Positions 2,344 through 64,000 of a stretch of DNA of 64,000 nt are shown here, one piece after another; the first letter of the stretch is position 1; every line of letters begins with the position of its first letter. This stretch comes from an uncultured Christensenella sp. (GTDB taxonomy: Bacteria > Bacillota > Clostridia > Christensenellales > Borkfalkiaceae): contig CAJUER010000001.1 of NCBI GenBank assembly GCA_910585705.1, positions 55,342-119,341 on the forward strand, read 5' to 3'. The notes beneath the pieces were generated by a model. It was not told where the DNA came from, searched no databases, and saw only the letters and a program-made list of their open reading frames with translations. The position numbers and the translations under genes were made by a program.

Positions 2344-2556
2344 AATAATTTTCCTAAATTAAAACACTTTTCAACTTCCTCAAAAGTATTCACATTCAAC
2401 GCAATTTCAAAACGCCCTTTTAAACCTTCATAATTTGCCAATTAAATCACAGTTACAGTGTAGTAATTGCATTATTAAAAGCGAAAAAAAACGATTGAAA
2501 TTTCAGCCATATATCGCGATGCTGCAAGCGAACGTCTGCGAAGAAAAGACCGGAAA

Positions 2557-2587
2557 AGGCGTGGCTTTACGCCACGCCTTTTTTTTT
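2557..2587. terminator. bidirectional hairpin terminator downstream of tkt
   Basis: AGGCGTGGC-tttac-GCCACGCCT flanked by A-run and T8. Serves the minus-strand tkt operon. Confidence 0.7.
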
Positions 2588-2657
2588 GCTGGCGGTTTGC
2601 CAATTATTCTCTGTGGAAATCACGGCAAAGCGCAACGCCGCTGTTCGGTTTTATGTT

Positions 2658-4646
2658 TTAGTAATATCTTCTTCTTGATTTTTCGAGGGAAAGTTTTGCT
2701 TTTTCTACGACTTTATCGGCTGTGAAACCGAAGTGTTCGAACACCTCGTTTGCAGGTCCCGACATACCGAAAGTTCTCATAGCAATCACTTCGCCGTTGT
2801 CGCCGGCGTATTTGTACCATGCAAAGTGTGAAGCCGCTTCAACGCATACCCTTGCCTTGACGAGCGGAGGAAGCACATAATCTTTGTATTCGTCGGTCTG
2901 TTTTTCAAACTCTTCCATACTGGGCATGGAAACGACGCGCGCGCGTATTCCTTCGTCTTCGAGCTGTTTTCTCGCCTTTGTGCAAAGCTCTATTTCCGAG
3001 CCGCAGGATATGAGAATAACGTCGGGCGTACCCGAGCAGTCTTCGAGGATATATCCGCCCGCAAGAGCTTTAATGTCCGAATTTTCGTTCTGGGGCAGGT
3101 TCTGGCGCGAAAGCACGAGAACGGTGGGGGAATCCTGCGTGAATGCGGAGATGTACGCCGCCGCAGTTTCTTTGCCGTCGCAGGGACGGAACACCTTTAT
3201 GTTGGGTATGGAACGCAGTGCGATAAGCTGTTCGACGGGTTGGTGAGTGGGTCCGTCCTCGCCGACGCCAATACTGTCGTGCGTCATAACGTAGATGACG
3301 GGAATATTCATAAGCGCGCTCATTCTTATTCCGCCCTTCATATAGTCCGAGAAAGAGAAGAATGTCGAGCAGACTATGCGCAGACCGCCGTGAAGCTGTA
3401 TGCCGTTGCAAATCGCCGCCATAGCGTGTTCGCGTATTCCGAAATGAATGTTGCGCCCTTCGCGGTTATCGGGCGAGAAGTACCCTTTGCCTTTAAGTTC
3501 TGTCTTGGTGGAGGGGGCAAGGTCTGCCGAACCCGACATAAGGTTGGGCATAAGCTCGGAAATCTTGTTTAAAATTTTGCCGCCCGAAATTCTCGTGGCT
3601 TCGGATCCTTCAAAACGGAACAGCTCGGGCATTTCGTTGAAGTCCGGCTCGCTTCCGTCCATAAATCTCTTGTATTTTTTTGCAAGCTCGGGATAGTCGC
3701 GTTCGTATTTCGCAAACATTTTGTTCCATTCGTTCTCGGCTTCCAGCTTGGCTTCCGCAATTTTGAAGCAGTGTTCTTTAACGTCTTCTGGTACGCAGAA
3801 AGGCTCTTCCGTCCACTTGAAAAATTCTTTCGTTTTTTGCAGGTTATCTTCGCCCATAGGCGCGCCGTGCACGTCGGCAGAGTCGGCAAGGGGAGAGCCG
3901 TAGCCGATAACCGAACGGCAGATGATAATGGAGGGGCGTGTCAAATCGCTCTTCGCGCGCTCGATGGCGGTTTTAAGCATAACGAGGTTGTTTGCGTCGT
4001 TTACGCGTATAACCTGCCAGCCCTGCGCCGCAAACCTTGTTGCAGGGTCTTCCGAGAAGGTCTGTTTTATGCTTCCCTCTATGGTGATGTCGTTTTTATC
4101 GTAGAGGAGTATCAGCTTGCCGAGCTTCTGGTTGCCAGCAAAGGAACACGCTTCATAGCTCAATCCTTCTTCCAGACAGCCGTCGCCGCACAAAACGTAA
4201 GTGAAGTGGTCTACTACGGGATAGTCGGGTCTGTTGAAAATAGCGGCAAGGTGCGACTCGGCAACGGCAAAACCCACAGCGTTGCCCACGCCCTGTCCCA
4301 AAGGACCCGTTGAGGTTTCAACGCCTTCGGTCTTTCCGTATTCGGGGTGGCCGGGCGTTCTCGAATCGACCTGTCTGAAATTCATCAAGTCCTCTTTGGT
4401 TACGTCGTAACCGAAAAGGTGTAAAAGCGAGTAAAGGAGCATGGAGCCGTGTCCCGCAGAAAGAATGAACCTGTCGCGGTTGTCCCACTTGGGGTTTTTG
4501 TAGCTGAATTTCAAAAAATCGCTAAACAGCTCGTAGCCTATCGGGGCGGCGCCCATACAGATGCCGGGATGTCCGGAATTAGCCTTCTGGATAGCTTCGG
4601 CAGAGAGTATTCTTATTGTGTCAACGCTTTTATCGGCAACAGACAT
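2658..4646 (-). CDS. tkt: transketolase
   Basis: 662 aa. SGHPG, GDGCLEEG and THDSIGVGEDGPTHQP motifs. AAAGGAGAA RBS upstream of the ATG. Confidence 0.95.
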   Translation of the reverse strand: MSVADKSVDTIRILSAEAIQKANSGHPGICMGAAPIGYELFSDFLKFSYKNPKWDNRDRFILSAGHGSMLLYSLLHLFGYDVTKEDLMNFRQVDSRTPGHPEYGKTEGVETSTGPLGQGVGNAVGFAVAESHLAAIFNRPDYPVVDHFTYVLCGDGCLEEGLSYEACSFAGNQKLGKLILLYDKNDITIEGSIKQTFSEDPATRFAAQGWQVIRVNDANNLVMLKTAIERAKSDLTRPSIIICRSVIGYGSPLADSADVHGAPMGEDNLQKTKEFFKWTEEPFCVPEDVKEHCFKIAEAKLEAENEWNKMFAKYERDYPELAKKYKRFMDGSEPDFNEMPELFRFEGSEATRISGGKILNKISELMPNLMSGSADLAPSTKTELKGKGYFSPDNREGRNIHFGIREHAMAAICNGIQLHGGLRIVCSTFFSFSDYMKGGIRMSALMNIPVIYVMTHDSIGVGEDGPTHQPVEQLIALRSIPNIKVFRPCDGKETAAAYISAFTQDSPTVLVLSRQNLPQNENSDIKALAGGYILEDCSGTPDVILISCGSEIELCTKARKQLEDEGIRARVVSMPSMEEFEKQTDEYKDYVLPPLVKARVCVEAASHFAWYKYAGDNGEVIAMRTFGMSGPANEVFEHFGFTADKVVEKAKLSLEKSRRRYY

Positions 4647-54660: not shown

Positions 54661-54801
54661 ACTGTCAATGCTCCAAAGAAAAGCCCAAAACAATTCCTGC
54701 GGGGTTCGTTTCGGGCTATTGCTGGCGGGCAGTCATCACCCGAATTTGAACTTTTTATGTATAAAGAGCATTTCGGGATAGAAATACTGTTATAAAACAC
54801 T

Positions 54802-55566
54802 TTAAGACTTCGTTATAGTGCCTTCCTTAATGTGATATTGCTTTCCATTTGTTTCGCAAAATAGAATCACTTTTTCAGCCATTTCATTAAAGAATTTTTT
54901 ATAATCTTTATATTGCGAAACTTTTGCATTGTAATTTAGTCTCCCAAAAATTATTTTATCTACAAAGGATATTGCATCTATAATTTCATCTAAACTTTGT
55001 TCAATGAAATTAGGTGTGGGATATGGTTCAATGCTTACCCATGTTTTGCATCCCGCTTCATGGAGATTTTTTAAAGATTGTATTCTTTCAACGTATGGAG
55101 CAGAGCCTGGCTCAATCTCTTTCCTAAAATCCTCATTAAGAGAAATCAAAGTTATGCCATATTCATTTTCATTTGACAATTCGCTAAGTTCAAACGGTAG
55201 CGTTCCTTTTGTAAGTGCTGTGCATTTAATTCCACTTTCATTTAATTTACGCATACACTGCGAACTTAAATCAGATATCTCAGGATAGTTGTACATAAAT
55301 GGGTCTGTGGTAAAACAAAGTTGTACGGATTGAATTTTATCTTTCAATTTGGGTATTTCTATATCAAGCAATTCTAAAGCATTACCAATAAGTTTGGGAC
55401 AGCACCAATCCTCATAAGTTTTAGCTTTACCAAACCTTTTTGCCATCATCATAGCATAGCACGGATATTTACATCCATGCGAACACCCTTCGGCGATATT
55501 TATTGTATAATCACCATATTCAACGCCCGTCTTATAAAGCAAACTTTTTCGCATTATTTTTTCCAT
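54802..55566 (-). CDS. three-Cys-motif / SPL(COG1533)-like radical-SAM-fold protein with non-canonical CX3CX3C
   Basis: 254 aa. GCSHGCKYPCYA near the N-terminus, then blocks laid out like SPL-type radical-SAM barrels (VQLCFTTDPFMY, ALTKG, ISLNEDFRKEIEPGSAP..RI, WVSIEPYP). RBS AAAGGA inside the end of the upstream gene. Confidence 0.5.
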   Translation of the reverse strand: MEKIMRKSLLYKTGVEYGDYTINIAEGCSHGCKYPCYAMMMAKRFGKAKTYEDWCCPKLIGNALELLDIEIPKLKDKIQSVQLCFTTDPFMYNYPEISDLSSQCMRKLNESGIKCTALTKGTLPFELSELSNENEYGITLISLNEDFRKEIEPGSAPYVERIQSLKNLHEAGCKTWVSIEPYPTPNFIEQSLDEIIDAISFVDKIIFGRLNYNAKVSQYKDYKKFFNEMAEKVILFCETNGKQYHIKEGTITKS

Positions 55567-55572
55567 TTTTTA

Positions 55573-56700
55573 TTATCCTTTAATATCATAATAATCGGAA
55601 GTATAGTTACTTTTCCTAACACCATCATTTAACTTAACCAGTATACCGTCTTCAATCAACGCTTCAAATACATGCTTCTTTAAATGACTTTTTCGTAACA
55701 TCGTTTTCTCCAATATAGGGAGTGCAATATCTTGATATGAAACATGGTTTTTATTTGGCAATCCAAGAATTATCTTTTTTGCGGATTCGGCATTGCAACT
55801 GATGATATATGCTTCATTATCTTTAGCAAATTGCTCTTCCATTATTGGGGTAAAAAATGATAACTGGTTTGTGTCGATTTTGCGAGGATTGCGATAATAA
55901 GATGCACCATTAAATGTTGTCCAAAGAGCGTCTTTGAGAACTTCCAATCCTTTATCTTTAGGAGTTATGTAAATAATTTGGTAAAGCTCCGTATTCGTTT
56001 CCGTATGGAATTCATAATTAAAACTATATTTCATTTTTCCAGTCTTTAATTGGGTGATAATATAGTTTACTAATTCATTTTTGTTGTTAATATTTGCGTT
56101 TGGATTATCAATTACATTATCAATCCTTGTATCCATATCATTATTTCTATTTCTTACCCAATCACTGGTGAAGAGATTAAAAAGAAGCTCACAATAATAT
56201 TGCTGGCAAAATTTCTTTAAGGTAGGGATATGCACAGTACCGAAATCATATGGATCTACATATAGTAATGTTGTTTGTGGATATGAAAACCTCTCTTTAT
56301 TTTGAAGCAAAATTGATAAGTAACCATTTACATCTTTTTGTGAGATGAATATTTTTAAGTTTGGTAGTTTGGTTTTATACACTATGTTAATGACTTCCTT
56401 AAGCACCTCTATTCGCTTTGCGTCAATATCATTTAAGTATAGGTTAAATACACGATCTTTGTGAATAGCCGCAGACTGTATAAATAATTTTAAAACCTCG
56501 ATGGATGTGCAAAAATCTCCATCTTGATAAACCCCAGCATTGGACATACAATCAATAAAATTAATACCTTCGACAAATTGAGCATTGCCTAAAACATACA
56601 ACCAATTTTGTACATAGTTTTTAACATATTTAATTTTATTAGTTGTTTGCGGTTTTTTAAGATCTAACAACTTTTTATATTTCTTTACCAATTCTTGCAT
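55573..56700 (-). CDS. TcmP-like (three-Cys-motif partner protein-like), probable Rossmann/methyltransferase fold
   Basis: 375 aa. N-terminal K-x-x-Y-V-x-x-Y-x-x-x-W pattern followed by INFIDCMSNAGVY (motif-I-like), LYLNDID (motif-II-like acidic) and LLYVDPYDFG (DPPY-like). Recognised from memory of family TIGR04474, not searched. Confidence 0.45.
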   Translation of the reverse strand: MQELVKKYKKLLDLKKPQTTNKIKYVKNYVQNWLYVLGNAQFVEGINFIDCMSNAGVYQDGDFCTSIEVLKLFIQSAAIHKDRVFNLYLNDIDAKRIEVLKEVINIVYKTKLPNLKIFISQKDVNGYLSILLQNKERFSYPQTTLLYVDPYDFGTVHIPTLKKFCQQYYCELLFNLFTSDWVRNRNNDMDTRIDNVIDNPNANINNKNELVNYIITQLKTGKMKYSFNYEFHTETNTELYQIIYITPKDKGLEVLKDALWTTFNGASYYRNPRKIDTNQLSFFTPIMEEQFAKDNEAYIISCNAESAKKIILGLPNKNHVSYQDIALPILEKTMLRKSHLKKHVFEALIEDGILVKLNDGVRKSNYTSDYYDIKG

Positions 56701-56703
56701 AAC

Positions 56704-57051
56704 TTACTCCGAAACTTTGTTGATAATCGATTCGATAAAATCAATTTCCTCATATGTGAGGTGCTTTTTAACATCAGTACCTTTTGAAAATAAAGTTTTG
56801 AATCCTTGTGCCATCAAGAAATTTTCAGCATTTACGTAATATTGCTGAAAGGTAATGGGCGGATTATTATTTACTGTATTCCACACGAGTGTTTCCACGC
56901 AATATTTTTGCATTAGACTGTTGATATGATTTAGCATTTCATCAAATTGTTGAGTGTTATAATAAAATCGCAATTTTTCCACATCATCGATGAAATCAGC
57001 AATTTCTTTAATATCTTTATAGTGTTCAAAAATAGATTTATAATCTTTCAT
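56704..57051 (-). CDS. hypothetical 115-aa protein (orphan, helical, acidic)
   Basis: ATG with GGAG 11 nt upstream. 27 nt after the res stop and 3 nt before the next gene. No recognisable motif. Confidence 0.5.
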   Translation of the reverse strand: MKDYKSIFEHYKDIKEIADFIDDVEKLRFYYNTQQFDEMLNHINSLMQKYCVETLVWNTVNNNPPITFQQYYVNAENFLMAQGFKTLFSKGTDVKKHLTYEEIDFIESIINKVSE

Positions 57052-57078
57052 AGAATCAACACTCCAATAGTATGTAGG

Positions 57079-60036
57079 CTATTCCCTAAACAAATCTTCA
57101 ACAATTTCAACCATTTTATCGCTGTGGAGCTGCTTTCTGTAACGAACATTAGGGACTTCTCGTTGCATTTCTTCAAATAGTTTTTGCGCGCAAGTAATTT
57201 TACGCACTTCTTCCGGGTCAAGCTCGCTATTTTCTTTGTCTTTTGTTTCGACAATCAAATTCAGTTGCTTGCTTCCGTCTTTCTTTTTGACGATATACAT
57301 AAAATCGGGGCTATACGTTCCGTCGGCATAGGTCGGTATTCGTACCGTGCGTTTCGGTATTTTGCCGAATACTTCCACTTCGGCTATTTGCGATTTTATA
57401 TCAAGCGTAATATTGTCTTTTTCAAGCTGTGAATCGTAACAGCAAGCATCATAGAGGTAGTTATCCAAAACCGCTGTATCAGAAGTAAATACTCCGACAT
57501 CATTACGAATTATAGATTTTTTTAGACCGTTCTCATCGCAAAGCGGATCATTGACTTTTACGTCTATCTTTTCATAAGAATACCGTTCATTGAATTTTGC
57601 AATAAACCATAGTCTATATTCATCTACAAATCTTTGCAATGTCTGTTTGCTAAAATATTCGGAAGGTATTGCTCGCGTAGCAAAATGTTCGCATAATGCC
57701 GAATGCATCAACTTAATCGGTATATTTGTGCGTTGCTGTACTTCTCTCAAAAAGACAGAGTACGGCAAAACCTTTTTTACGGTAAAAGAAGTGCCTGCAA
57801 TATCCTCAAAATCAACGCTACCATCAGCGTCGACTTTCTTTGATTTCGCTATTTTAGTTGTAACCGTAGAGCGCCCGTCAATATTTTTTGCAAGGATATC
57901 GGCTATGGCTCTTTTTAGCACATCATCGTCAATTTTTTCAATATGTAAATAGTACTTTTGGTTTATAAGTTTCCATAATTTTTCGAGCTTGCCGAAAATA
58001 TTTTCACGAATACCAATGCGCGCTGTGTTCTGATTTTTGGATTTGTTGATGTCAATAATTTTACCATTAGACAAAGCCTTAAACAAATCGGGATAGGCAA
58101 GCATAAATTCATCTTTTTTATCTTCGATTAAACTAAAGTCTATCGGATCGATAAAGGCTTTAGCAATAATATCACGCAAGAACTCTCGAATATCAATGTG
58201 TTTTGCCTTTGCATATTTTTCAAGGAATTCTCTTGTAATTTTCAGTTCAAGACTAGCATCGCCGTTAATCTCTTTCTTTAATTTATCGGCAAAATCTTTT
58301 TCAGAATAATCAATAATATAACGCAAATACATTTGTTCGTCGCTGATGCGATTACCAAACTCATCTACCGGCAAACGCAACCCGCGCCCGACTTCTTGCA
58401 ATTTGCTTGTTTCACTTCCGCTACTGCGAAGTTTGGCAATGACAAAAACATTCGGATTATCCCAACCTTCTTTCAACGTCCACTTGGAGAAAATGAAGCG
58501 TGTAGGCTCAAAATTTCCATTATCGTCTTTAATACGTATAATTTTGTCTTTTGCTCGAAGAACCTTATCAACTTCGTTTTTAACATCGTCGCTATCGGTA
58601 TTGTTGTCCTCAGAGAAGTATGCAGCGATGGTGTCAGATAAATGATCCAAAGAATATTCAAGATAGGCTTTATACTCTTTGTCCCGTTCTGAAGAAGTAA
58701 GGGACCGAATTTCTGTCTTCAACTTGGTTAGCAGTAAATCTTCAAAGTCTTTCCTTAAATGTCCGTCATTTCGGAAAGATTCTATACTGTCAATAAAGAA
58801 GAGTGAAAGGGTTTTAATTCTATTCAAACGTCTGAAATTATCACGCTCTTTTTCAAAATGCCTGTCGAGAGCTAACGATAGCATCATTTTTTGGAAAGTA
58901 TCACTAAATACTTGCGGATAAATTGAATCGCTCGTATGCAAATCCATACCGTTTGAAAGAGTGATAATGCCTTTATCGATTTTATCTACGGTAACTCCTA
59001 TAAGACTATCATCTATTTCAGCAAGAGACTGACCTATGACTAAATCATACGCCTTCTTGGTTAATTCGTTTTGTAATCTTACCGTTTTTTCTTCACCTTT
59101 ATTTGACGTAATAGACAAAACTTTAATTTTAACTTGTTCTTTCAGTTTGGCTTCTTCGGCAATATATTCAACTTCTACGCCCTTGATAAGATTGTCGTTG
59201 AAGGCATCGCAAGAACCGAGATTAAATACTACGTTTTCGTAATCGAAAACTCCTTTCGATATTTCGGGGAACGTAGCGCCGTACCGAATAACACATTGCG
59301 GTTTTATATTGTCTATCAAGCATTTGAAGGTTTTTTGTGTGCGTGTAAATTTATGCGGCTCGTCGATAATCACAAAAGGGGCAATTTCGCGCAATGTTTC
59401 ATACGGCTTGGTATATACACCCAAAAGCGTTTGATCATAACTTGCACCCATAGTTGCCTTTGATGTAAGCATACCGCTGTTTATTAAAAGCACATCGATT
59501 CTGTTGCCGCCTATGTCTGTCGCGTTAGCAAAATCGACGATGGCAGAAGGAATCATCTTTCTGCCTTTTGTGCTTTTTTGAGAATCCAAAACGTGCAAGC
59601 ATAATTGAGTACCGCCATATAACGCCTGCAAATCTGTCCTCATATAACTCGATGTCAGGAACGACTTTGCACCTTCTTTAATGGGAACGGTAGGAACAAG
59701 TACGATAAATTTATTGATTCCGTAGTGTTTATGTAATTCAAACATAGTGCGGGTATATACATACGTTTTACCCGTACCTGTTTCCATTTTAACGTCTATA
59801 TTCAGATAATCGCTATCCGTATAATTGCGCTTATAGTAATCCGGCAATCTATAATCGTCGGCATAAAAGTCTCCGTTTTGAACAGCGGCTACATTGCGTT
59901 TAATAGCTGGATCGGAAAAATCAACACGTAAGCACTTATTTTTATCTGCACTTGGTATGAAACCAACGCCCGCGAATACACCGCAAACGGCATTTACGGC
60001 ATTCAACTGATGCGGTAAATTATTTTCTAATCTCAT
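57079..60036 (-). CDS. res: Type III restriction enzyme, Res subunit
   Basis: 985 aa. SF2 helicase motif I METGTGKTY, motif II IIDEPHKF, later motifs KLQEVGRGLRL, and C-terminal PD-(D/E)xK nuclease SPDFMY...LIVETKDKE. GAGGTG RBS overlapping the mod stop. Confidence 0.9.
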   Translation of the reverse strand: MRLENNLPHQLNAVNAVCGVFAGVGFIPSADKNKCLRVDFSDPAIKRNVAAVQNGDFYADDYRLPDYYKRNYTDSDYLNIDVKMETGTGKTYVYTRTMFELHKHYGINKFIVLVPTVPIKEGAKSFLTSSYMRTDLQALYGGTQLCLHVLDSQKSTKGRKMIPSAIVDFANATDIGGNRIDVLLINSGMLTSKATMGASYDQTLLGVYTKPYETLREIAPFVIIDEPHKFTRTQKTFKCLIDNIKPQCVIRYGATFPEISKGVFDYENVVFNLGSCDAFNDNLIKGVEVEYIAEEAKLKEQVKIKVLSITSNKGEEKTVRLQNELTKKAYDLVIGQSLAEIDDSLIGVTVDKIDKGIITLSNGMDLHTSDSIYPQVFSDTFQKMMLSLALDRHFEKERDNFRRLNRIKTLSLFFIDSIESFRNDGHLRKDFEDLLLTKLKTEIRSLTSSERDKEYKAYLEYSLDHLSDTIAAYFSEDNNTDSDDVKNEVDKVLRAKDKIIRIKDDNGNFEPTRFIFSKWTLKEGWDNPNVFVIAKLRSSGSETSKLQEVGRGLRLPVDEFGNRISDEQMYLRYIIDYSEKDFADKLKKEINGDASLELKITREFLEKYAKAKHIDIREFLRDIIAKAFIDPIDFSLIEDKKDEFMLAYPDLFKALSNGKIIDINKSKNQNTARIGIRENIFGKLEKLWKLINQKYYLHIEKIDDDVLKRAIADILAKNIDGRSTVTTKIAKSKKVDADGSVDFEDIAGTSFTVKKVLPYSVFLREVQQRTNIPIKLMHSALCEHFATRAIPSEYFSKQTLQRFVDEYRLWFIAKFNERYSYEKIDVKVNDPLCDENGLKKSIIRNDVGVFTSDTAVLDNYLYDACCYDSQLEKDNITLDIKSQIAEVEVFGKIPKRTVRIPTYADGTYSPDFMYIVKKKDGSKQLNLIVETKDKENSELDPEEVRKITCAQKLFEEMQREVPNVRYRKQLHSDKMVEIVEDLFRE

Positions 60037-60044
60037 AATTCACC

Positions 60045-61970
60045 TCAATACCGCAAGATTGGCTCAATCGAAGTTCTGTTTTTCAATGTCTTCAAGTTAG
60101 AGCGTAACGCCGTATTTGTTGTATAGCTAAAAGCATATCCGTATTCAATAATTCTGTCTATGTTCAGTTCGTGAGCTTCAATTTTTCTTACAAGCTCAAT
60201 AATAGACTTTTCAGGCATATCCTCAATCAAGTACAGGCTTGTACCGACTTTGTTATCTGAGAGAAGATAAGCAGTGTAACCGTGCAAATCAACTGTTTGC
60301 ACCATTGCATTAAAGCCGTAGCCGTCTTTTATTTTCCAAGTTTCTAAAACGGTATCCACACCGAATTTACTTTTTATATCTTCTCCGTCGATAGGAAGCA
60401 TAGGATTAAATTCGGTTATTTTATCCAATGTGTTTTTATCCGTTGCTTTCAAGTAATATGTTTTAAAACTCAAATCCACACTTGATGCACTGTCGGGGTT
60501 TGCTTTTTCAATCTTCTTCGCCGCAAGCTGTATCCTTTTTCTGCCAATTTCATCTATCGTAGTATAGCCATTTTCTTCCGCTATAGAGCCGTGAGAAACT
60601 TGCTCGGACAACTGTACCATAATAAATCTATGATTGGTTGTATTAATGGTATTATATTGCATAATTGCATGTGCCATAGAAGCTGAACCTGAGAAGAAAT
60701 CTAAAATAATATTCTCCTCATCATCATTTGTCGCCATTTGACAGATGCGCGCAAGCATCTCGATAGGTTTTGGATAATCGAAAACTTTGCATCCAAACAA
60801 CTCTTTTACTAATAAAGTACCTTTTTCTGTATTAGTATCTTTATCCCACCAAACAGAACGAGCCATTTTACGCGCTTCTCGATATTTTTCAACTATTTGA
60901 AAACCGCCATTTCGCATTGCTTTGGCTTTTATATTAATATTTAAGTTTGCTATTGCTTTATCTTTTCCCCATCTCCAAACAGTTTTAACTCCTTGTGATT
61001 CTAATGGATATAACTTTATCCAATCTTCTTTAGGAGTTAAAGAAATATCATATAACCCATTTTCATCTGCACGAGATGAGTCAATGTAGAATGGATAGTA
61101 TAAATTGGGACGATTTTCCTTGTTGAATTTTATGTTACGATTTCTTAATTCTCTTAATTCATACCCTCCGAATTCGTCAAATTGAGTAAACTCGCCGTCT
61201 TCATCGTCAATCAGGTTTATTTCACATTTATCTGTTTTTCTATAAGCGAGAATATAATCATTCATACGTGCAATACCACCATAATCTCGCCCTCTTGGAT
61301 TCGCAACAACTGTTATTTGTCCAATAAAGTTGCCTTCTCCAAATATCAAGTCGCAAAGCAATTTGGCATTTGTAATTTCATTATCATCTAAACTAATAAA
61401 AATGCATCCATCATTAGAAAGTAAATCTTTCGCCAACTCTAAACGTGGATACATAAAAGTAAGCCAAGCAGAGTGCGTGCTTTTACCTTGCATATCCAAA
61501 ACGCGCTGCGCCTCATCTTCTTCTATATTTATTTTTCTTGCAAGTTCTTCAGCAGTAAACTCAAATTTATCGTTATAAACAAAACCATCCGAGCCCGTGT
61601 TGTATGGGGGATCGATATAGATACACTTTATTTTTTCCGAATAGGAGTATTTCAAGTGTTGCAATGCATCGAGATTATCGCCTACGATATAGACATTTTG
61701 TGAATCGATATTTTTATTTTCTTCGTCGGGTAAAATAACAGTTTCGGAATCAAGACTCGCCAAATAACGGGCATAAGACTTGCCCAAGAAGTCAAGAGAA
61801 TAGCCCTCTTTCTTTATATCAACTTCTTCAGTCCTAATCAAGTCCTCAAACGTTTTCAAATCAAACTTGCCGTCTTTATCAAAGCATTGGGGAAAATCCT
61901 TTTTAAGAAGTTCTATTTCTCGGCTATTGACTTTTGCTTGAGAATTCTTTTCTATTGTTTCTTTTATCAT
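60045..61970 (-). CDS. mod: Type III DNA methyltransferase, Mod subunit (amino-MTase, beta-class motif order)
   Basis: CIYIDPPYNTGSDGF (motif IV) precedes ILDFFSGSASMAHA (motif I). I prefer the ATG at 61970 (GGAG 6 nt upstream); the ORF-track ATG at 61997 has no RBS and lies 12 nt from the predicted -10. Confidence 0.9.
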   Translation of the reverse strand: MIKETIEKNSQAKVNSREIELLKKDFPQCFDKDGKFDLKTFEDLIRTEEVDIKKEGYSLDFLGKSYARYLASLDSETVILPDEENKNIDSQNVYIVGDNLDALQHLKYSYSEKIKCIYIDPPYNTGSDGFVYNDKFEFTAEELARKINIEEDEAQRVLDMQGKSTHSAWLTFMYPRLELAKDLLSNDGCIFISLDDNEITNAKLLCDLIFGEGNFIGQITVVANPRGRDYGGIARMNDYILAYRKTDKCEINLIDDEDGEFTQFDEFGGYELRELRNRNIKFNKENRPNLYYPFYIDSSRADENGLYDISLTPKEDWIKLYPLESQGVKTVWRWGKDKAIANLNINIKAKAMRNGGFQIVEKYREARKMARSVWWDKDTNTEKGTLLVKELFGCKVFDYPKPIEMLARICQMATNDDEENIILDFFSGSASMAHAIMQYNTINTTNHRFIMVQLSEQVSHGSIAEENGYTTIDEIGRKRIQLAAKKIEKANPDSASSVDLSFKTYYLKATDKNTLDKITEFNPMLPIDGEDIKSKFGVDTVLETWKIKDGYGFNAMVQTVDLHGYTAYLLSDNKVGTSLYLIEDMPEKSIIELVRKIEAHELNIDRIIEYGYAFSYTTNTALRSNLKTLKNRTSIEPILRY

Positions 61971-62009
61971 ACCTGACTCCTTTGCCTTGAAAGACATTAT
62001 ACAAGTTTA

Positions 62010-62018: not shown

Positions 62019-62075
62019 TACTTTTTCAAAAAAACATAGCAAATCAATGCGTCTTGTCGAAAATTGGACATAACT

Positions 62076-62344
62076 CTTACCGCGAAAATCGGGTTTCCCG
62101 ATTGTTCCAGCAAGGCGATAGCCGAGCGTCAAAATAACCGATTCCCAAGAATTTTGGTTATTTTCTTTACCTGCTTGTAAAAACAGCGTTTTATTGGCTA
62201 TTTTCCCAAAATAATCGCAGTATGGAAGCAACTATTTATTTAGGATTTTGCTTTAGTTTTGGTGCGTATTGTATACGGAAACAAAGCAGGTAAAGAAAAG
62301 TACACCAAAGTGTCTTTTGAGGTAAGCAATCGGGAAACCCGATT
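62076..62344. repeat. nested inverted repeats (18-nt and 16-nt perfect arms) forming a potential ~270-nt cruciform/stem-loop
   Basis: AATCGGGTTTCCCGATTG (62087-62104) versus CAATCGGGAAACCCGATT (62327-62344). TTTTCTTTACCTGCTT (62161-62176) versus AAGCAGGTAAAGAAAA (62284-62299). Extra CTTACC/GGTAAG arms and an internal hairpin AAAATAACC/GGTTATTTT (62131-62164). Confidence 0.75.
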
Positions 62345-62390
62345 CTTTTGTTAGATAAATTTTCACCTTCTTGATTGCAAAACCGAGAAT

Positions 62391-62828
62391 AAGTGTACTT
62401 GGTTATATGGGGATATACAAAGTTTTTTCGTCGTTTCGGTTGTATTTCTCAAAAAAGTGTCCTAGGAGATATAGAAGGGGTAAGAAAATTTTTTGAAAAA
62501 GTTTCGGTTCAGACCGTCAACTTTTTGCTATAACTGTGCTTGGTATAGTAGAGGGAGAAAGATTAAAGGTTGATGAAATTTTCGTCCACGCGTAAATATT
62601 TTCGAGATAAGTGTGCTTGGATAAGTGAAGGGAATTTTTCATTAGACCCCGAACTTTTAAAGAAAAGTGTGCTTGGTTATATAGAGGGGTAATAAAAAGT
62701 TTGCCTTAGACCGTGTACTTTTCGGGATATGTGTGCTTGGTTATATGGAGGGACTTGAAAATTCTTTTGAGAATTTCTACTCAGACCGCCACGTTTTGGA
62801 GATAAGTGTGCTTGGTTAAGTAGGGAGT
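62391..62828 (+). repeat. seven-unit degenerate bipartite tandem array (consensus AGACCG-N15-AAGTGTGCTTGGTTATATGGAGGG), non-coding
   Basis: Core copies start at 62391, 62455, 62532, 62609, 62665, 62729 and 62804 (spacings 64, 77, 77, 56, 64, 75 nt). An AGACC(G/C) box lies exactly 21 nt upstream of the core in four units (62511, 62644, 62708, 62783). Confidence 0.85.
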
Positions 62829-62863
62829 ATTTTAAGGAGGTACAACTATGAGCGGATAAACTC

Positions 62864-62892
62864 TTGACAAACAACTCCATATAGAGTAAAAT
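62864..62892 (+). promoter_or_regulatory. near-consensus sigma-A promoter
   Basis: TTGACA, 17-nt spacer, TAAAAT, directly after the last array unit and 55 nt upstream of the ATG at 62947. Confidence 0.65.
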
Positions 62893-62900
62893 ATATTCAG

Positions 62901-62914
62901 TCGTATATATACGA
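62901..62914. promoter_or_regulatory. perfect 14-bp palindrome TCGTATATATACGA at the predicted transcription start (candidate operator)
   Basis: Lies 9 nt downstream of the -10 hexamer and upstream of the GGAGGAAAG RBS. Confidence 0.4.
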
Positions 62915-62946
62915 TTATATATATTTACCCTACGGAGGAAAGAACA

Positions 62947-63213
62947 ATGGCAACAGACAGGTCTATTAAAGACAAGCGTTATGAAGAAAAGCATAAGGAA
63001 GAGAGAAAAGCCAAGTATATGATTTGGGGTACGAGCGTACCGCGAAAGTATGCCGAAGAAATAAACGAGTTTTTGGCGAAGTACGGGTTTACCAAAGTGC
63101 AACTCATCGAAGCGGGGTTTAAGGCTTTGATTGACGAAGCGGCTGAAACGGATACTTCTCTTGCCAAGACTATGGACGGCTACGACGATTTCTTTGTATT
63201 GGAGAAAAAGTAA
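62947..63213 (+). CDS. hypothetical 88-aa charged protein, possibly a small DNA-binding (RHH-like) protein
   Basis: Good RBS and promoter. Basic N-terminus (KDKRYEEKHKEERKAK), then a beta-strand-like MIWGTSVP and two short helices. The fold guess is weak. Confidence 0.5.
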   Translation: MATDRSIKDKRYEEKHKEERKAKYMIWGTSVPRKYAEEINEFLAKYGFTKVQLIEAGFKALIDEAAETDTSLAKTMDGYDDFFVLEKK

Positions 63214-63313
63214 CTCTTCTTCCTTATGGATGGTAGCGAGGAAAAATAACCGGATATCTCGACGTCCACATAGGACTTAAATTATTTTCAGCAAAAACTT
63301 TTTATCCGTAGAT

Positions 63314-63478
63314 TTGGCTACGTGTATTACTCAGCAAACAGACTATGAAATAACACAAGAACAGATAGAAACAAGCGCAACAATATTAGCAAACATACTA
63401 CTCGACTTTGTAAAACAAAACGGTACTTCTATCTTATTCCCCGAAAGAGTATTCGGCAAAGGAGAACACAATGAATAA
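63314..63478 (+). CDS. possible 54-aa ORF (TTG start) translationally coupled to the recombinase gene
   Basis: Open frame from 63281. Its stop TAA 63476-63478 overlaps the recombinase ATG at 63471 (ATGAATAA). No ATG, weak start context. May be a gene remnant. Confidence 0.2.
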   Translation: MATCITQQTDYEITQEQIETSATILANILLDFVKQNGTSILFPERVFGKGEHNE

Positions 63479-64000
63479 ACGAGCGGTTATATATGCAAGA
63501 TTCAGCTCGCACACGCAAACGGAACAATCTATCGAAGGTCAGCTTCGGGAATGCTATGACTATGCCAAACGACACGACTTACTTATTGTCGGAGAGTACA
63601 TAGACCGCGCATTCACGGGTACAACTGACAAGCGTCCGAACTTCTTGCAAATGATAGAAGACAGCAAGAAAAAGACTTTCGATTATGTCCTTGTCTATCA
63701 ATTAGACCGATTTGCTCGTAACCGCTATGACAGCGCGAACTACAAAGCGAAGTTGAAAAAGAATGGCGTTCGTGTTCTTTCGGCAAAGGAAAACATTACC
63801 GAAGATGCGAGTGGCATTCTCATAGAAGGCGTTCTCGAAAGTATGGCGGAATATTATAGTGCCGAGCTTTCGCAAAAGGTACGGCGCGGTATTAGAGAAA
63901 GTTTGAGCAAAGGCTACTTCATTGGTGGATACAAGTTATTCGGCTATGACATCATAGACAAGCGTTGGATTATAAACCCGATTGAAGCCCCGATAGTCAA
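63471..64000 (+). CDS. large serine recombinase, N-terminal resolvase domain (runs off the right edge)
   Basis: AVIYARFSSHTQTEQSIEGQ catalytic-Ser block, VYQLDRFARN, AEYYSAELSQKVRRG. GGAGAACACA RBS. Confidence 0.9.
   Translation, partial: MNKRAVIYARFSSHTQTEQSIEGQLRECYDYAKRHDLLIVGEYIDRAFTGTTDKRPNFLQMIEDSKKKTFDYVLVYQLDRFARNRYDSANYKAKLKKNGVRVLSAKENITEDASGILIEGVLESMAEYYSAELSQKVRRGIRESLSKGYFIGGYKLFGYDIIDKRWIINPIEAPIV

Follow-up and report, generated by a model that had tools for sequence, protein, structure and literature searches.

The DNA analysed here (the window) is a stretch of 64,000 nucleotides (nt) from an uncultured Christensenella sp. Towards its right end, on the plus strand, it holds an array of seven diverged repeat units (62356-62833), which is followed by a gene for an 88-amino-acid (aa) protein of no known family (62947-63213, plus strand) and by a large serine recombinase (LSR) gene that begins at 63471 and runs off the window at 64000 (plus strand; 514 aa in the full locus). 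The array lies inside an integrated element of ~10.3 kb, and we conclude that it is genuine and under selection, a cis element of variable copy number that belongs to the element's control region. An earlier note, made from the sequence alone, had described seven copies of a short core at this place and suggested an array of protein-binding sites.

A profile built from the seven units, each roughly 65 bases long and all on the same strand, gave the following anatomy. Unit 1 (type T1, a profile match at 62356-62419) has its core, AAGTGTACTTGG, from 62391, and its variable part is a hairpin, CTTGATTGCAAAACCGAG, with a GCAA loop. Unit 2 (type T2, ..CGGTTGT.., 62420-62485) carries the most diverged core, AAGTGTCCTAGG, from 62455, and unit 3 (type T3, AGACCGTCAACTTTTT, 62497-62561) has its core, AACTGTGCTTGG, from 62532. 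These are followed by unit 4 (type T4, CCACGCGTAAATATTTT, 62574-62635), unit 5 (type T5, AGACCCCGAACTTTT, 62630-62694), unit 6 (type T6, AGACCGTGTACTTTT, 62694-62759) and unit 7 (type T7, AGACCGCCACGTTTT, 62770-62833), with cores from 62609, 62665, 62729 and 62804, respectively. All seven cores were thus found where the earlier note had them, and their core-to-core periods (64, 77, 77, 56, 64 and 75 nt) bear out its remark that the spacing is irregular, at 56-77 nt. The bipartite module that it saw in four units was also recovered: the pattern AGACCS-N5-TTTT-N9-TGTGCTTGG has exactly four matches, at 62511, 62644, 62708 and 62783, and none in any shuffle. Its length of ~46 nt has to be revised to about 57 nt, as AAATTT forms a third conserved block 25 nt upstream of the core. 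A weaker outlier proposed at 62309 did not hold up, being an 18-nt stretch at only 78% which the unit profile misses and which sits inside another conserved element (62084-62350).

The repeat array is real and non-random. Seed-and-extend repeat finding returned a 56-nt unit in five copies at 62500-62827 (63-79% identity; spacings 77, 56, 64 and 75 nt) along with a 25-nt core family that includes a copy at 62389. With up to three mismatches, AAGTGTGCTTGGTTA matched six times in the 64-kb window, every time within the array and on the plus strand, against a shuffle mean of 1.4 and six matches reached in 2 of 100 shuffles. Tandem Repeats Finder reported nothing on the array because the units are too diverged and irregular, and seeds and the profile were used in its place. 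The plus strand of the array is G-rich and C-poor. As the earlier note had it, no plus-strand frame is open across the array (no open reading frame (ORF) of more than 46 aa crosses it); the array is not part of a coding gene and matched no Rfam family.

The repeat is conserved in related elements. All genome loci used for comparison (L numbers) were fetched through the 88-aa gene, and among them an iterated profile found 141 units in 38 loci, comprising 123 distinct sequences. All 141 units have the same orientation as the 88-aa gene, and where the contig includes this gene they lie upstream of it. A pattern scan of metagenome contigs, which used no protein seed, added six more arrays, and here too the 88-aa gene, or a gene for a putatively ribbon-helix-helix (RHH)-like protein of 149 aa, is downstream where the contig allows. 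The array therefore travels with the 88-aa gene and serine-recombinase module in one orientation, in agreement with the earlier assignment to a mobile element. In nearly all close relatives the last box stands 139-142 nt before the 88-aa ATG, which is 57-59 bp before the -35 element, and core-to-core spacings are 56-78 bp (70 intervals measured). Copy number runs from 0 to 9 across related elements and from 1 to 7 in close relatives, the nine units being counted by eye in L077.

An alignment of 105 distinct units showed that conservation is very uneven. The near-invariant columns, which are 90-100% conserved, are AAATTT (columns 4-9), the box A.AA.TGT.CTTGG (35-48), T54, A57 and G60. By columns 11-34, about seven types can be told apart: T1 CTTGGTTGCAAAACCGAG, T2 ..CGGTTGTGAAATGC, T3 AGACCGTCAACTTTT, T4 CCACGCGTAAATATTTT, T5 AGACCCCGAACTTTT, T6 AGACCGTGTACTTTT and T7 AGACCGCCACGTTTT. 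The order of these types is the same from locus to locus, and distant arrays contain them too: T7 GACCGCCACGTTTT, T5 CCCGAACTTTTT, T6 GTGTACTTTT and the GGTTGT of T1/T2 are found again where the 88-aa proteins are only 70-79% identical. The unit types are thus old themselves, and the invariance of the box across these same relatives argues for purifying selection. T1 is the sole type with a real alifold consensus hairpin, a small one, and the unit alignment, inspected by eye, shows a compensatory change from T-A to G-C in the T1 stem of orthologous units elsewhere. In close relatives the 3' half of the last unit is constant (TTAAGTAGAGAGATATT) whatever the type of its 5' half, so it is by recombination inside the box that copy number changes. 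Set against array-less relatives (…CAGCGACTTTTTTGCGCCCAAAATTCAAATTTAGGAGG), the units look like old tandem duplications of a segment running from a terminator tail to the Shine-Dalgarno (SD) sequence of a leader, in which case ..ACTTTT would be a vestigial terminator tail and TAAGTAGAGGG a vestigial SD.

Directly downstream, the 3' half of unit 7 (TTAAGTAGGGAGTATTTT) abuts a ribosome-binding site, the SD AAGGAGG (62834-62840), which is followed on the plus strand by the mini-ORF ATG AGC GGA TAA (62848-62859), encoding MSG*. The k-mers TTAAGGAGG and ATGAGCGGATAAAC of this region are present in about 19-20 loci, and an SD with a tiny or short leader ORF lies 3' of the array in every related locus read, with about 12 nt from the array end to the strong SD and mini-ORF. 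The mini-ORF itself varies (MRY* in L042, MR* in L077, M.NY..Y.PP* in L060, L065 and L070; MDD* was also seen). The promoter of the 88-aa/LSR operon (TTGACA-17-TAAAAT, 62864-62892, plus strand) has 11 of 12 consensus matches and is conserved as CTTGACAAA in 22 loci; its TTGACA starts 36 nt after the array end at 62828, as the earlier note had reported. Between the -10 element and the SD of the 88-aa gene we found a perfect palindrome, TCGTATATATACGA (62901-62914). Palindromes of the form GTCGTAT..ATACGAC occupy the same place in more than 20 loci, array-less loci included, and a half-site lies upstream of the -35 element. This palindrome probably serves the operon as its own operator for autoregulation and is distinct from the array.

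On its other side the array is preceded by a strongly structured region, module A (62084-62350), made of two inverted copies of AAGCAGGTAAAG...AATCGGGAAACCCGATT with a T-run. Its hairpin part reads AATCGGG(AAA/TTT)CCCGATT plus a T-run, it contains perfect inverted repeats of 18 nt and 16 nt, and its fold z-scores are -6.9 and -7.5. A plus-strand terminator (62328-62350) closes module A just 5' of the array. Among the non-coding motifs of the family, AAGCAGGTAAAG and the hairpin have the widest distribution, at about 30-38 of 73 loci. The window has the two copies in divergent and L004 in convergent orientation, and in L042 a single copy forms the 5' leader, with terminator, of the 149-aa gene (3440-3889). 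Module A could act as an attenuator, as a pair of small RNAs or as a single-strand origin. It also lies at the left limit of what relatives have in common with the window: homology between loci begins just left of module A or the array, and cargo further left differs in most loci.

The 88-aa protein has 461 close homologues and 137 representatives at 50% identity, all of them unnamed. A first AlphaFold model was too poor for use. With a deeper alignment, AlphaFold gave a predicted local distance difference test (pLDDT) score of 79.8 and placed a helix at residues 4-23, strands at 24-26 and 30-32, and helices at 33-46 and 50-76. The strand-helix-helix part could be RHH-like, judging from its sequence pattern.

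The host element is defined by an empty site. GC content drops from about 0.48 to about 0.35 at 52 kb of the window, and a sister assembly (L085; GCA_948928105.1) has the same protein-coding neighbourhood with the island absent. In that assembly, window position 54728 directly adjoins a tRNA-Ser(TGA) gene at its 3' end, and the two sides overlap by the 6 nt TGGCGG, which mark the attL crossover region at the left element end (54723-54728). The integrated element thus extends from 54729 to about 64993, its right end lying beyond the window at the tRNA-Ser 3' end, and the array is therefore inside it. We find attB at the tRNA-Ser 3' end to be GGGGTTCGTTTCGGGCTATTGC joined to TGGCGGAGAGAGAGGGATTTGAACC (continuing form GGGGTTCGTTTCGGGCTATTGC joined to TGGCGGAG...), with the element arms GGGTTCAAATTGGGTGCTTG at attR and GCAGTCATCACCCGAATTTGAAC at attL. 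A motif of the type GTTC(A/G)(A/T)(A/T)T, in inverted orientation, is present in both attB arms and both element arms. The island was integrated by the LSR at the 3' end of tRNA-Ser. The element is also present in ERR3199661 and ERR3199651. A locus of the same genome that reaches past the window end (L001; window coordinate = L001 + 52946) carries, directly past this tRNA-Ser(TGA) (L001 12048-12135, minus strand), four to five tandem 91-nt repeats that are 96% identical (L001 12117-12480). Each combines a copy of the tRNA 5' acceptor/D-arm, GGAGAGATGGCAGAGTGG, with an unrelated hairpin, AAGCACAATGTGCTT, and a matching 3' acceptor strand; these pseudo-tRNA-like units received no ARAGORN call, and similar repeats are present in L017.

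Genes within the element are arranged as a radical-SAM protein (54802-55566) and TcmP-like protein (55573-56700) pair, a 115-aa gene without family match, type III Res (57079-60036), type III Mod (60045-61997), module A, the array, the SD and mini-ORF, the promoter, the palindromic operator, the 88-aa gene, a 54-aa ORF and the 514-aa LSR. The TcmP/radical-SAM pair matches the PADLOC candidate system PDC-M30, and the cargo from 54802 to 61997 is of defence type. The earlier placement of the array between a restriction-modification operon and a recombinase module is thus right as to position, and the restriction-modification genes are cargo of the same element rather than a mere neighbour. No Mob homologue and no family-type origin of transfer (oriT) were found in the window (random 9-11-mers only), and the window element has lost mob.

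A scan of species-representative genomes for the 88-aa gene gave 80 loci, mostly in metagenome-assembled genomes (MAGs) of Christensenellaceae, Borkfalkiaceae or Pumilibacteraceae type, with several copies in some genomes and matches often at contig ends. The recombinase gene of relatives ends at the 3' end of a tRNA gene: for close recombinase relatives (gene about 85% identical in DNA) these are tRNA-Ser genes with four anticodons, and in distant members the target is tRNA-Gln, Arg, Leu or Pro. In at least 15 loci the gene immediately 5' of the 88-aa gene encodes a Mob_Pre/MobV relaxase (that of L060 lies at 2556-3719), and a 123-149-aa gene takes the relaxase position in other loci. The relaxase gene is preceded by a conserved leader ORF ending Pro-Pro-stop and by a hairpin, GCACACTATACTTTC..GAAAGTAGTGTGCT, which resembles the pMV158 oriT (GCACACACTTTATGAATATAAAGTATAGTGTG/TTATACTTTA, or GCACACACTTTATGAATATAAAGTATAGTGTG/TTATAC; PMC3105389). 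Given the MobV relaxase and pMV158-like oriT of many relatives, the family is one of tRNA-targeting integrative mobilizable elements (IMEs). This serine-recombinase IME family is previously undescribed, and a literature search for a tRNA-Ser-targeting serine-recombinase element returned nothing pertinent. Blastn of 62050-63300 against phages and plasmids and tblastn of the 88-aa protein against plasmids gave no match, and viral contigs held no 88-aa relative, no exact core pattern and no array; the array is not a phage feature.

The Mob-type relatives show further leader elements of their own. Their tiny ORF is a conserved 10-codon leader, M(K/E/R)NY(H/Y)(H/Q)(Y/N)(H/Y)PP*, whose Pro-Pro-stop lies just 5' of the oriT hairpin (L060 2372-2418, with L065, L070, L054 and L061 listed with it), an arrangement which hints that control of mob is coupled to translation. 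L060 (1956-2080) and its equivalents in L065, L067 and L070 have, 5' of both the array and the leader peptide, a canonical promoter (TTGGCG-17-TACAAT with TG) driving a leader of ~110 nt with a strong terminator at its end and a second, weak one after it. The arrangement has the look of an attenuator or riboregulator of the mob operon that has so far gone unrecognised.

Of the functions that could account for these observations, we tentatively favour a DNA-level, multi-site protein-docking array that tunes the adjacent recombination and transfer operon. Each unit would consist of the vestigial terminator tail ...ACTTTT, the invariant box A.AA.TGT.CTTGG and the vestigial SD, of which the box and the AAATTT block would be what selection keeps, as recognition sites of a sequence-specific DNA-binding factor. 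Several copies of this factor would load on one face, 57-59 bp and further upstream of the 88-aa/LSR promoter or, in relatives, at the same position upstream of leader-oriT-mob or the 149-aa gene. Factor loading would set the transcription level of the recombination/transfer module, and copy number (0-9) would act as an evolvable gain control. The first candidate for the binder is a small protein encoded by the element itself, either the 88-aa protein or, in relatives, the putatively RHH-like 149-aa protein; a MobV relaxase supplied in trans would come second and RNA polymerase third. The uneven conservation, the fixed orientation and position, the location inside the element and the adjacent small-protein gene all argue for docking. 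The protein-binding role put forward in the earlier note is thus still the likeliest reading, while the particular options that it offered (iterons, a partition centromere or recombinase accessory sites) fared poorly, as discussed below.

Several observations weigh against docking. The operon already has its own palindromic operator at 62901-62914, and the 56-78 bp spacings, without clean helical phasing, do not resemble the operator arrays of known RHH proteins, which are contiguous. The elements can also dispense with the array, as Mob-type elements that are otherwise nearly identical have 3, 1-2 or 0 units. With regard to the 88-aa protein as binder, no DNA-binding family was matched in Pfam, NCBIfam, PHROGs, PADLOC or PDB sequence and profile searches, and Foldseek of its model against the PDB gave no match; PADLOC likewise returned no match for the 149-aa protein. 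Further, relatives with and without an array do not differ in the 88-aa sequence, nor in its putative DNA-reading strand M(I/V)WGTSVPR (L060 versus L054; L062 versus L050), and linkage does not show this protein to be the binder. The linkage is itself partly a matter of ascertainment, as the genome loci were all fetched through the 88-aa gene. Finally, the box is not uniform, its 5' half being different (..ATCGCCCTTTTAAGTGAGGGG) in L061 and L071.

The units may instead be extended -10 sites lacking a -35 element, on the plus strand, serving as weak tandem promoters or polymerase docking sites that feed the mini-ORF and recombinase operon, a possibility that we rate as unlikely. In the proposed layout, TG at columns 46-47 is followed by a hexamer (49-54), a purine-rich start and then the SD-like sequence, and the columns fit in part: T46 and G47 are 92-99% conserved and T54 is 100% conserved, which is the geometry of TGn plus a hexamer with a -7T. 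Full TGnTAnnnT sequences (TATAGT, TAATAT) occur in 21 of 121 distinct units, among them unit 3, which alone among the window units has a canonical extended -10 (TGGTATAGT, 62541-62549), and TGnTAAnAT-type hexamers were seen by eye in several of the nine L077 units. Since terminators lie 5' of arrays (62328-62350 in the window; around 2866-2895 in L042) and an SD with mini-ORF directly 3', a start inside the array would make sense. The mobM promoters of pMV158, which have an extended -10, likewise overlap or adjoin an oriT (PMC5863519). However, about 77% of units have T rather than A at position -11, the distance between the conserved A and T is 3 nt rather than 4 in most units, and the most conserved bases would fall in the promoter spacer. 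Sigma-70-like sites were not above shuffles in consensus and position-weight scans (0 on the plus strand and 1 on the minus strand against a null of 1.3), and in some relatives the better promoter-like matches are on the opposite strand, with some minus-strand matches in L077, L004 and L042. Ordinary tandem sigma-70 promoters on either strand of the window array were set aside for want of enrichment.

The MobV relaxases of the family raise the question of whether the units, especially T5, are degenerate MobV-type oriT sequences read by MobV (Pre) relaxases in trans. An oriT of this type has a short hairpin, followed after about 8 nt by a G/T or G/C nick. Such mimics would allow mobilisation of a relaxase-less island, and relaxase-mediated recombination between units would change copy number. 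The family setting speaks for this, with the relaxase gene and the pMV158-like hairpin described above in relatives (PMC3105389) and neither a mob gene nor a family-type oriT in the window element. In sequence, the box (AAAGTGTGCTTGG) resembles the right arm and nick region of family oriTs (AAAGTGTG(TG)CTCTG), and T5 units align to family oriTs over about 30 nt (p 0.012-0.036). Unit 5, with ACTTTT-AAAG-AAAAGT, an 8-nt stretch (GTGCTTGG) and G/TTATAT, reproduces the minimal pMV158 oriT geometry of IR1+8 and a G/T nick (PMC3105389, PMC5863519). But the whole array scores p 0.22 against the pMV158 oriT, with control windows scoring as high, and only one of seven units reaches p 0.018, uncorrected. 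The stem is paired in 66% of cells against 50-60% in slid controls, without covariation, and the hairpin is confined to T5 and, in part, T3 and T6. L061-type boxes are unlike the hairpin arm of that same element, L060 holds both an array and a canonical oriT, and the window has no adjacent cognate relaxase gene. Overall, we consider oriT mimicry quite improbable. The same low probability attaches to a bolder version in which the array is a 'multi-oriT' of nick-site mimics fused to crippled extended -10 promoters. Here the MobV of a sister element in the same community would mobilise the relaxase-less defence island in trans, Pre-type recombination would resize the array, and unit number would be a heritable rheostat for transfer and recombinase expression.

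It is likewise quite improbable that the array works at the level of RNA. In such a scheme a plus-strand read-through transcript would provide an unstructured 5' leader whose SD-like sequences (GAGGGG, AGAGGGA) bind 30S or another RNA-binding factor, stabilising or gating the message. An SD-like purine run ends every unit and looks homologous to the true SD after the last unit (TTAAGTAGAGAG versus TTTTAAGGAGG), the L060 array lies between a canonical promoter with terminators and the leader peptide of the mob operon, and the strand bias noted above would also fit. Against this, the best-conserved bases, TGT.CTTGG, are outside the SD-like part, a terminator stands immediately upstream in the window, and no RNA-binding protein is evident in the element. 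Neither structure nor covariation was found: the array folds with z-scores of -0.04 and -0.06 on its two strands, which are not significant, alifold across units gave no consensus structure, and an Rfam scan returned no relevant match at E up to 10, with no tRNA in the window. A structured RNA, with z about 0 on both strands, no consensus fold and no Rfam match, was therefore ruled out.

The specific functions suggested in the earlier note, that is, iterons of a replication origin, a partition centromere, or LSR accessory or pseudo-att sites, together have a similarly slim chance. Direct repeats next to a promoter and a small, possibly RHH-like gene are reminiscent of parC-parR layouts, and GTGCTTG occurs both in the box and in the attR P arm (GGGTGCTTG followed by TGGCGG). 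However, the annotated ORFs of the 10.3-kb element include no replication initiator (Rep) family, which speaks against iterons, and no ParA, ParM or TubZ family, which speaks against a centromere. Iteron origins have 17-22 bp repeats at roughly two-helical-turn spacing, and the periods of 56-78 bp are unlike such phasing. With regard to accessory sites, attL is 7.6 kb and attR 2.2 kb away from the array, which contains no copy of the recombinase arm motif GGGTTCRAAT, and its similarity to att arms is not above chance, as 42-174 of 300 shuffles score as well in comparisons with attR, the tRNA and the 91-nt repeats. A derivation of the units from tRNA-Ser/att sequence, prompted by shared GTGCTTG, AGAGGGA and AGACCGCC, was rejected in the same way: local alignments were no better than shuffles, and an 8-mer is expected by chance.

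Least probable among the readings that we graded is a functionless minisatellite, a MIRU/VNTR-like (mycobacterial interspersed repetitive unit/variable-number tandem repeat) relic of repeated tandem duplication in the leader region. A copy number of 0-9 between close relatives, down to complete absence, would be expected of such a relic, and the units do look like duplicated segments from terminator tail to SD. Yet identity in the flanks has fallen to 63-79% around an invariant 14-nt box, distant relatives retain the same differentiated types, and neutral copies of such age should have lost the box.

Three further candidates were rejected. A CRISPR (clustered regularly interspaced short palindromic repeats) array does not fit, as identity between units is 63-79%, the same 'spacers' recur in different loci and are unequal in length, Tandem Repeats Finder reported nothing and CRISPR direct-repeat families gave no match within the array, the sole weak match of the region being outside it. 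ToxI-like RNAs of type III toxin-antitoxin systems consist of near-identical repeats in tandem, with a terminator and the gene for an endoribonuclease toxin 3' of them; here the repeats are diverged, a mini-ORF, promoter and 88-aa gene are downstream, and PADLOC gave no match. Lastly, the element encodes a type III system, and the AGACC copies at 62511, 62644, 62708 and 62783 share one orientation. AGACC is the recognition sequence of EcoP1I (type III), but the agreement is probably a coincidence, and its reading as the element's own type III site was dropped, as the box is also kept where the cargo differs (a D12-class methyltransferase in L018).

Compared with known systems, the array is a variant of repeat arrays in mobile-element control regions. 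It resembles the operator arrays of parC/ParR and omega type in that same-orientation repeats, variable in copy number, stand right before a mobile-element promoter from which a gene for a small and possibly RHH-like protein is expressed. Those arrays are built of contiguous 7-20-bp sites with helical spacing and have a proven RHH binder with a nucleoside triphosphatase (NTPase) partner or a defined regulon, whereas here the units are 56-78 bp apart and of seven types, an NTPase is lacking, and the small protein, which matches no family, does not vary along with the array. Centromeres like F-plasmid sopC and the mycobacterial MIRU/VNTR loci share with it intergenic units of 40-100 bp with a short conserved core and copy-number polymorphism. 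sopC consists of tandem 43-bp units, each with a short binding core, and the copies of both sopC and MIRU are nearly identical; the window copies are 63-79% identical with ancient unit identities, and equivalents of SopA/SopB are lacking. The likeness to the MobV (pMV158-type) oriT lies in the MobV genes of relatives and, within T5, in the ACTTT..AAAGT hairpin, the following stretch of about 8 nt, the G/T step and a TTATA-type hexamer preceded by TG; extended -10 promoters overlap the pMV158 oriT itself (PMC3105389, PMC5863519). This similarity is statistically weak and the window element has no relaxase. We know of no MobV oriT in seven tandem copies. The host element, as opposed to the array, is close to the mobilizable transposons and IMEs of Tn4451 type in the LSR, Mob_Pre relaxase and upstream oriT of its family, and differs from them in targeting tRNA 3' ends and in its gene order, mob and the recombinase gene being separated by the 88-aa gene; in the window member, moreover, defence cargo is present and mob has been lost.

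IMEs that use LSRs are common in uncultured gut Clostridia, here in Christensenellales-type MAGs, and move defence cargo. The array occupies the very place at which a decision to excise or transfer would be taken, 5' of the recombinase operon and, in relatives, of oriT-mob. For this recombinase family, the precise attB, attL and attR sites can be put to direct use. If a protein does read the array, it would give a handle on the regulation of the element family and might help tune serine recombinase expression, and if the units were true oriT mimics, they would explain the spread of relaxase-less islands within the family.

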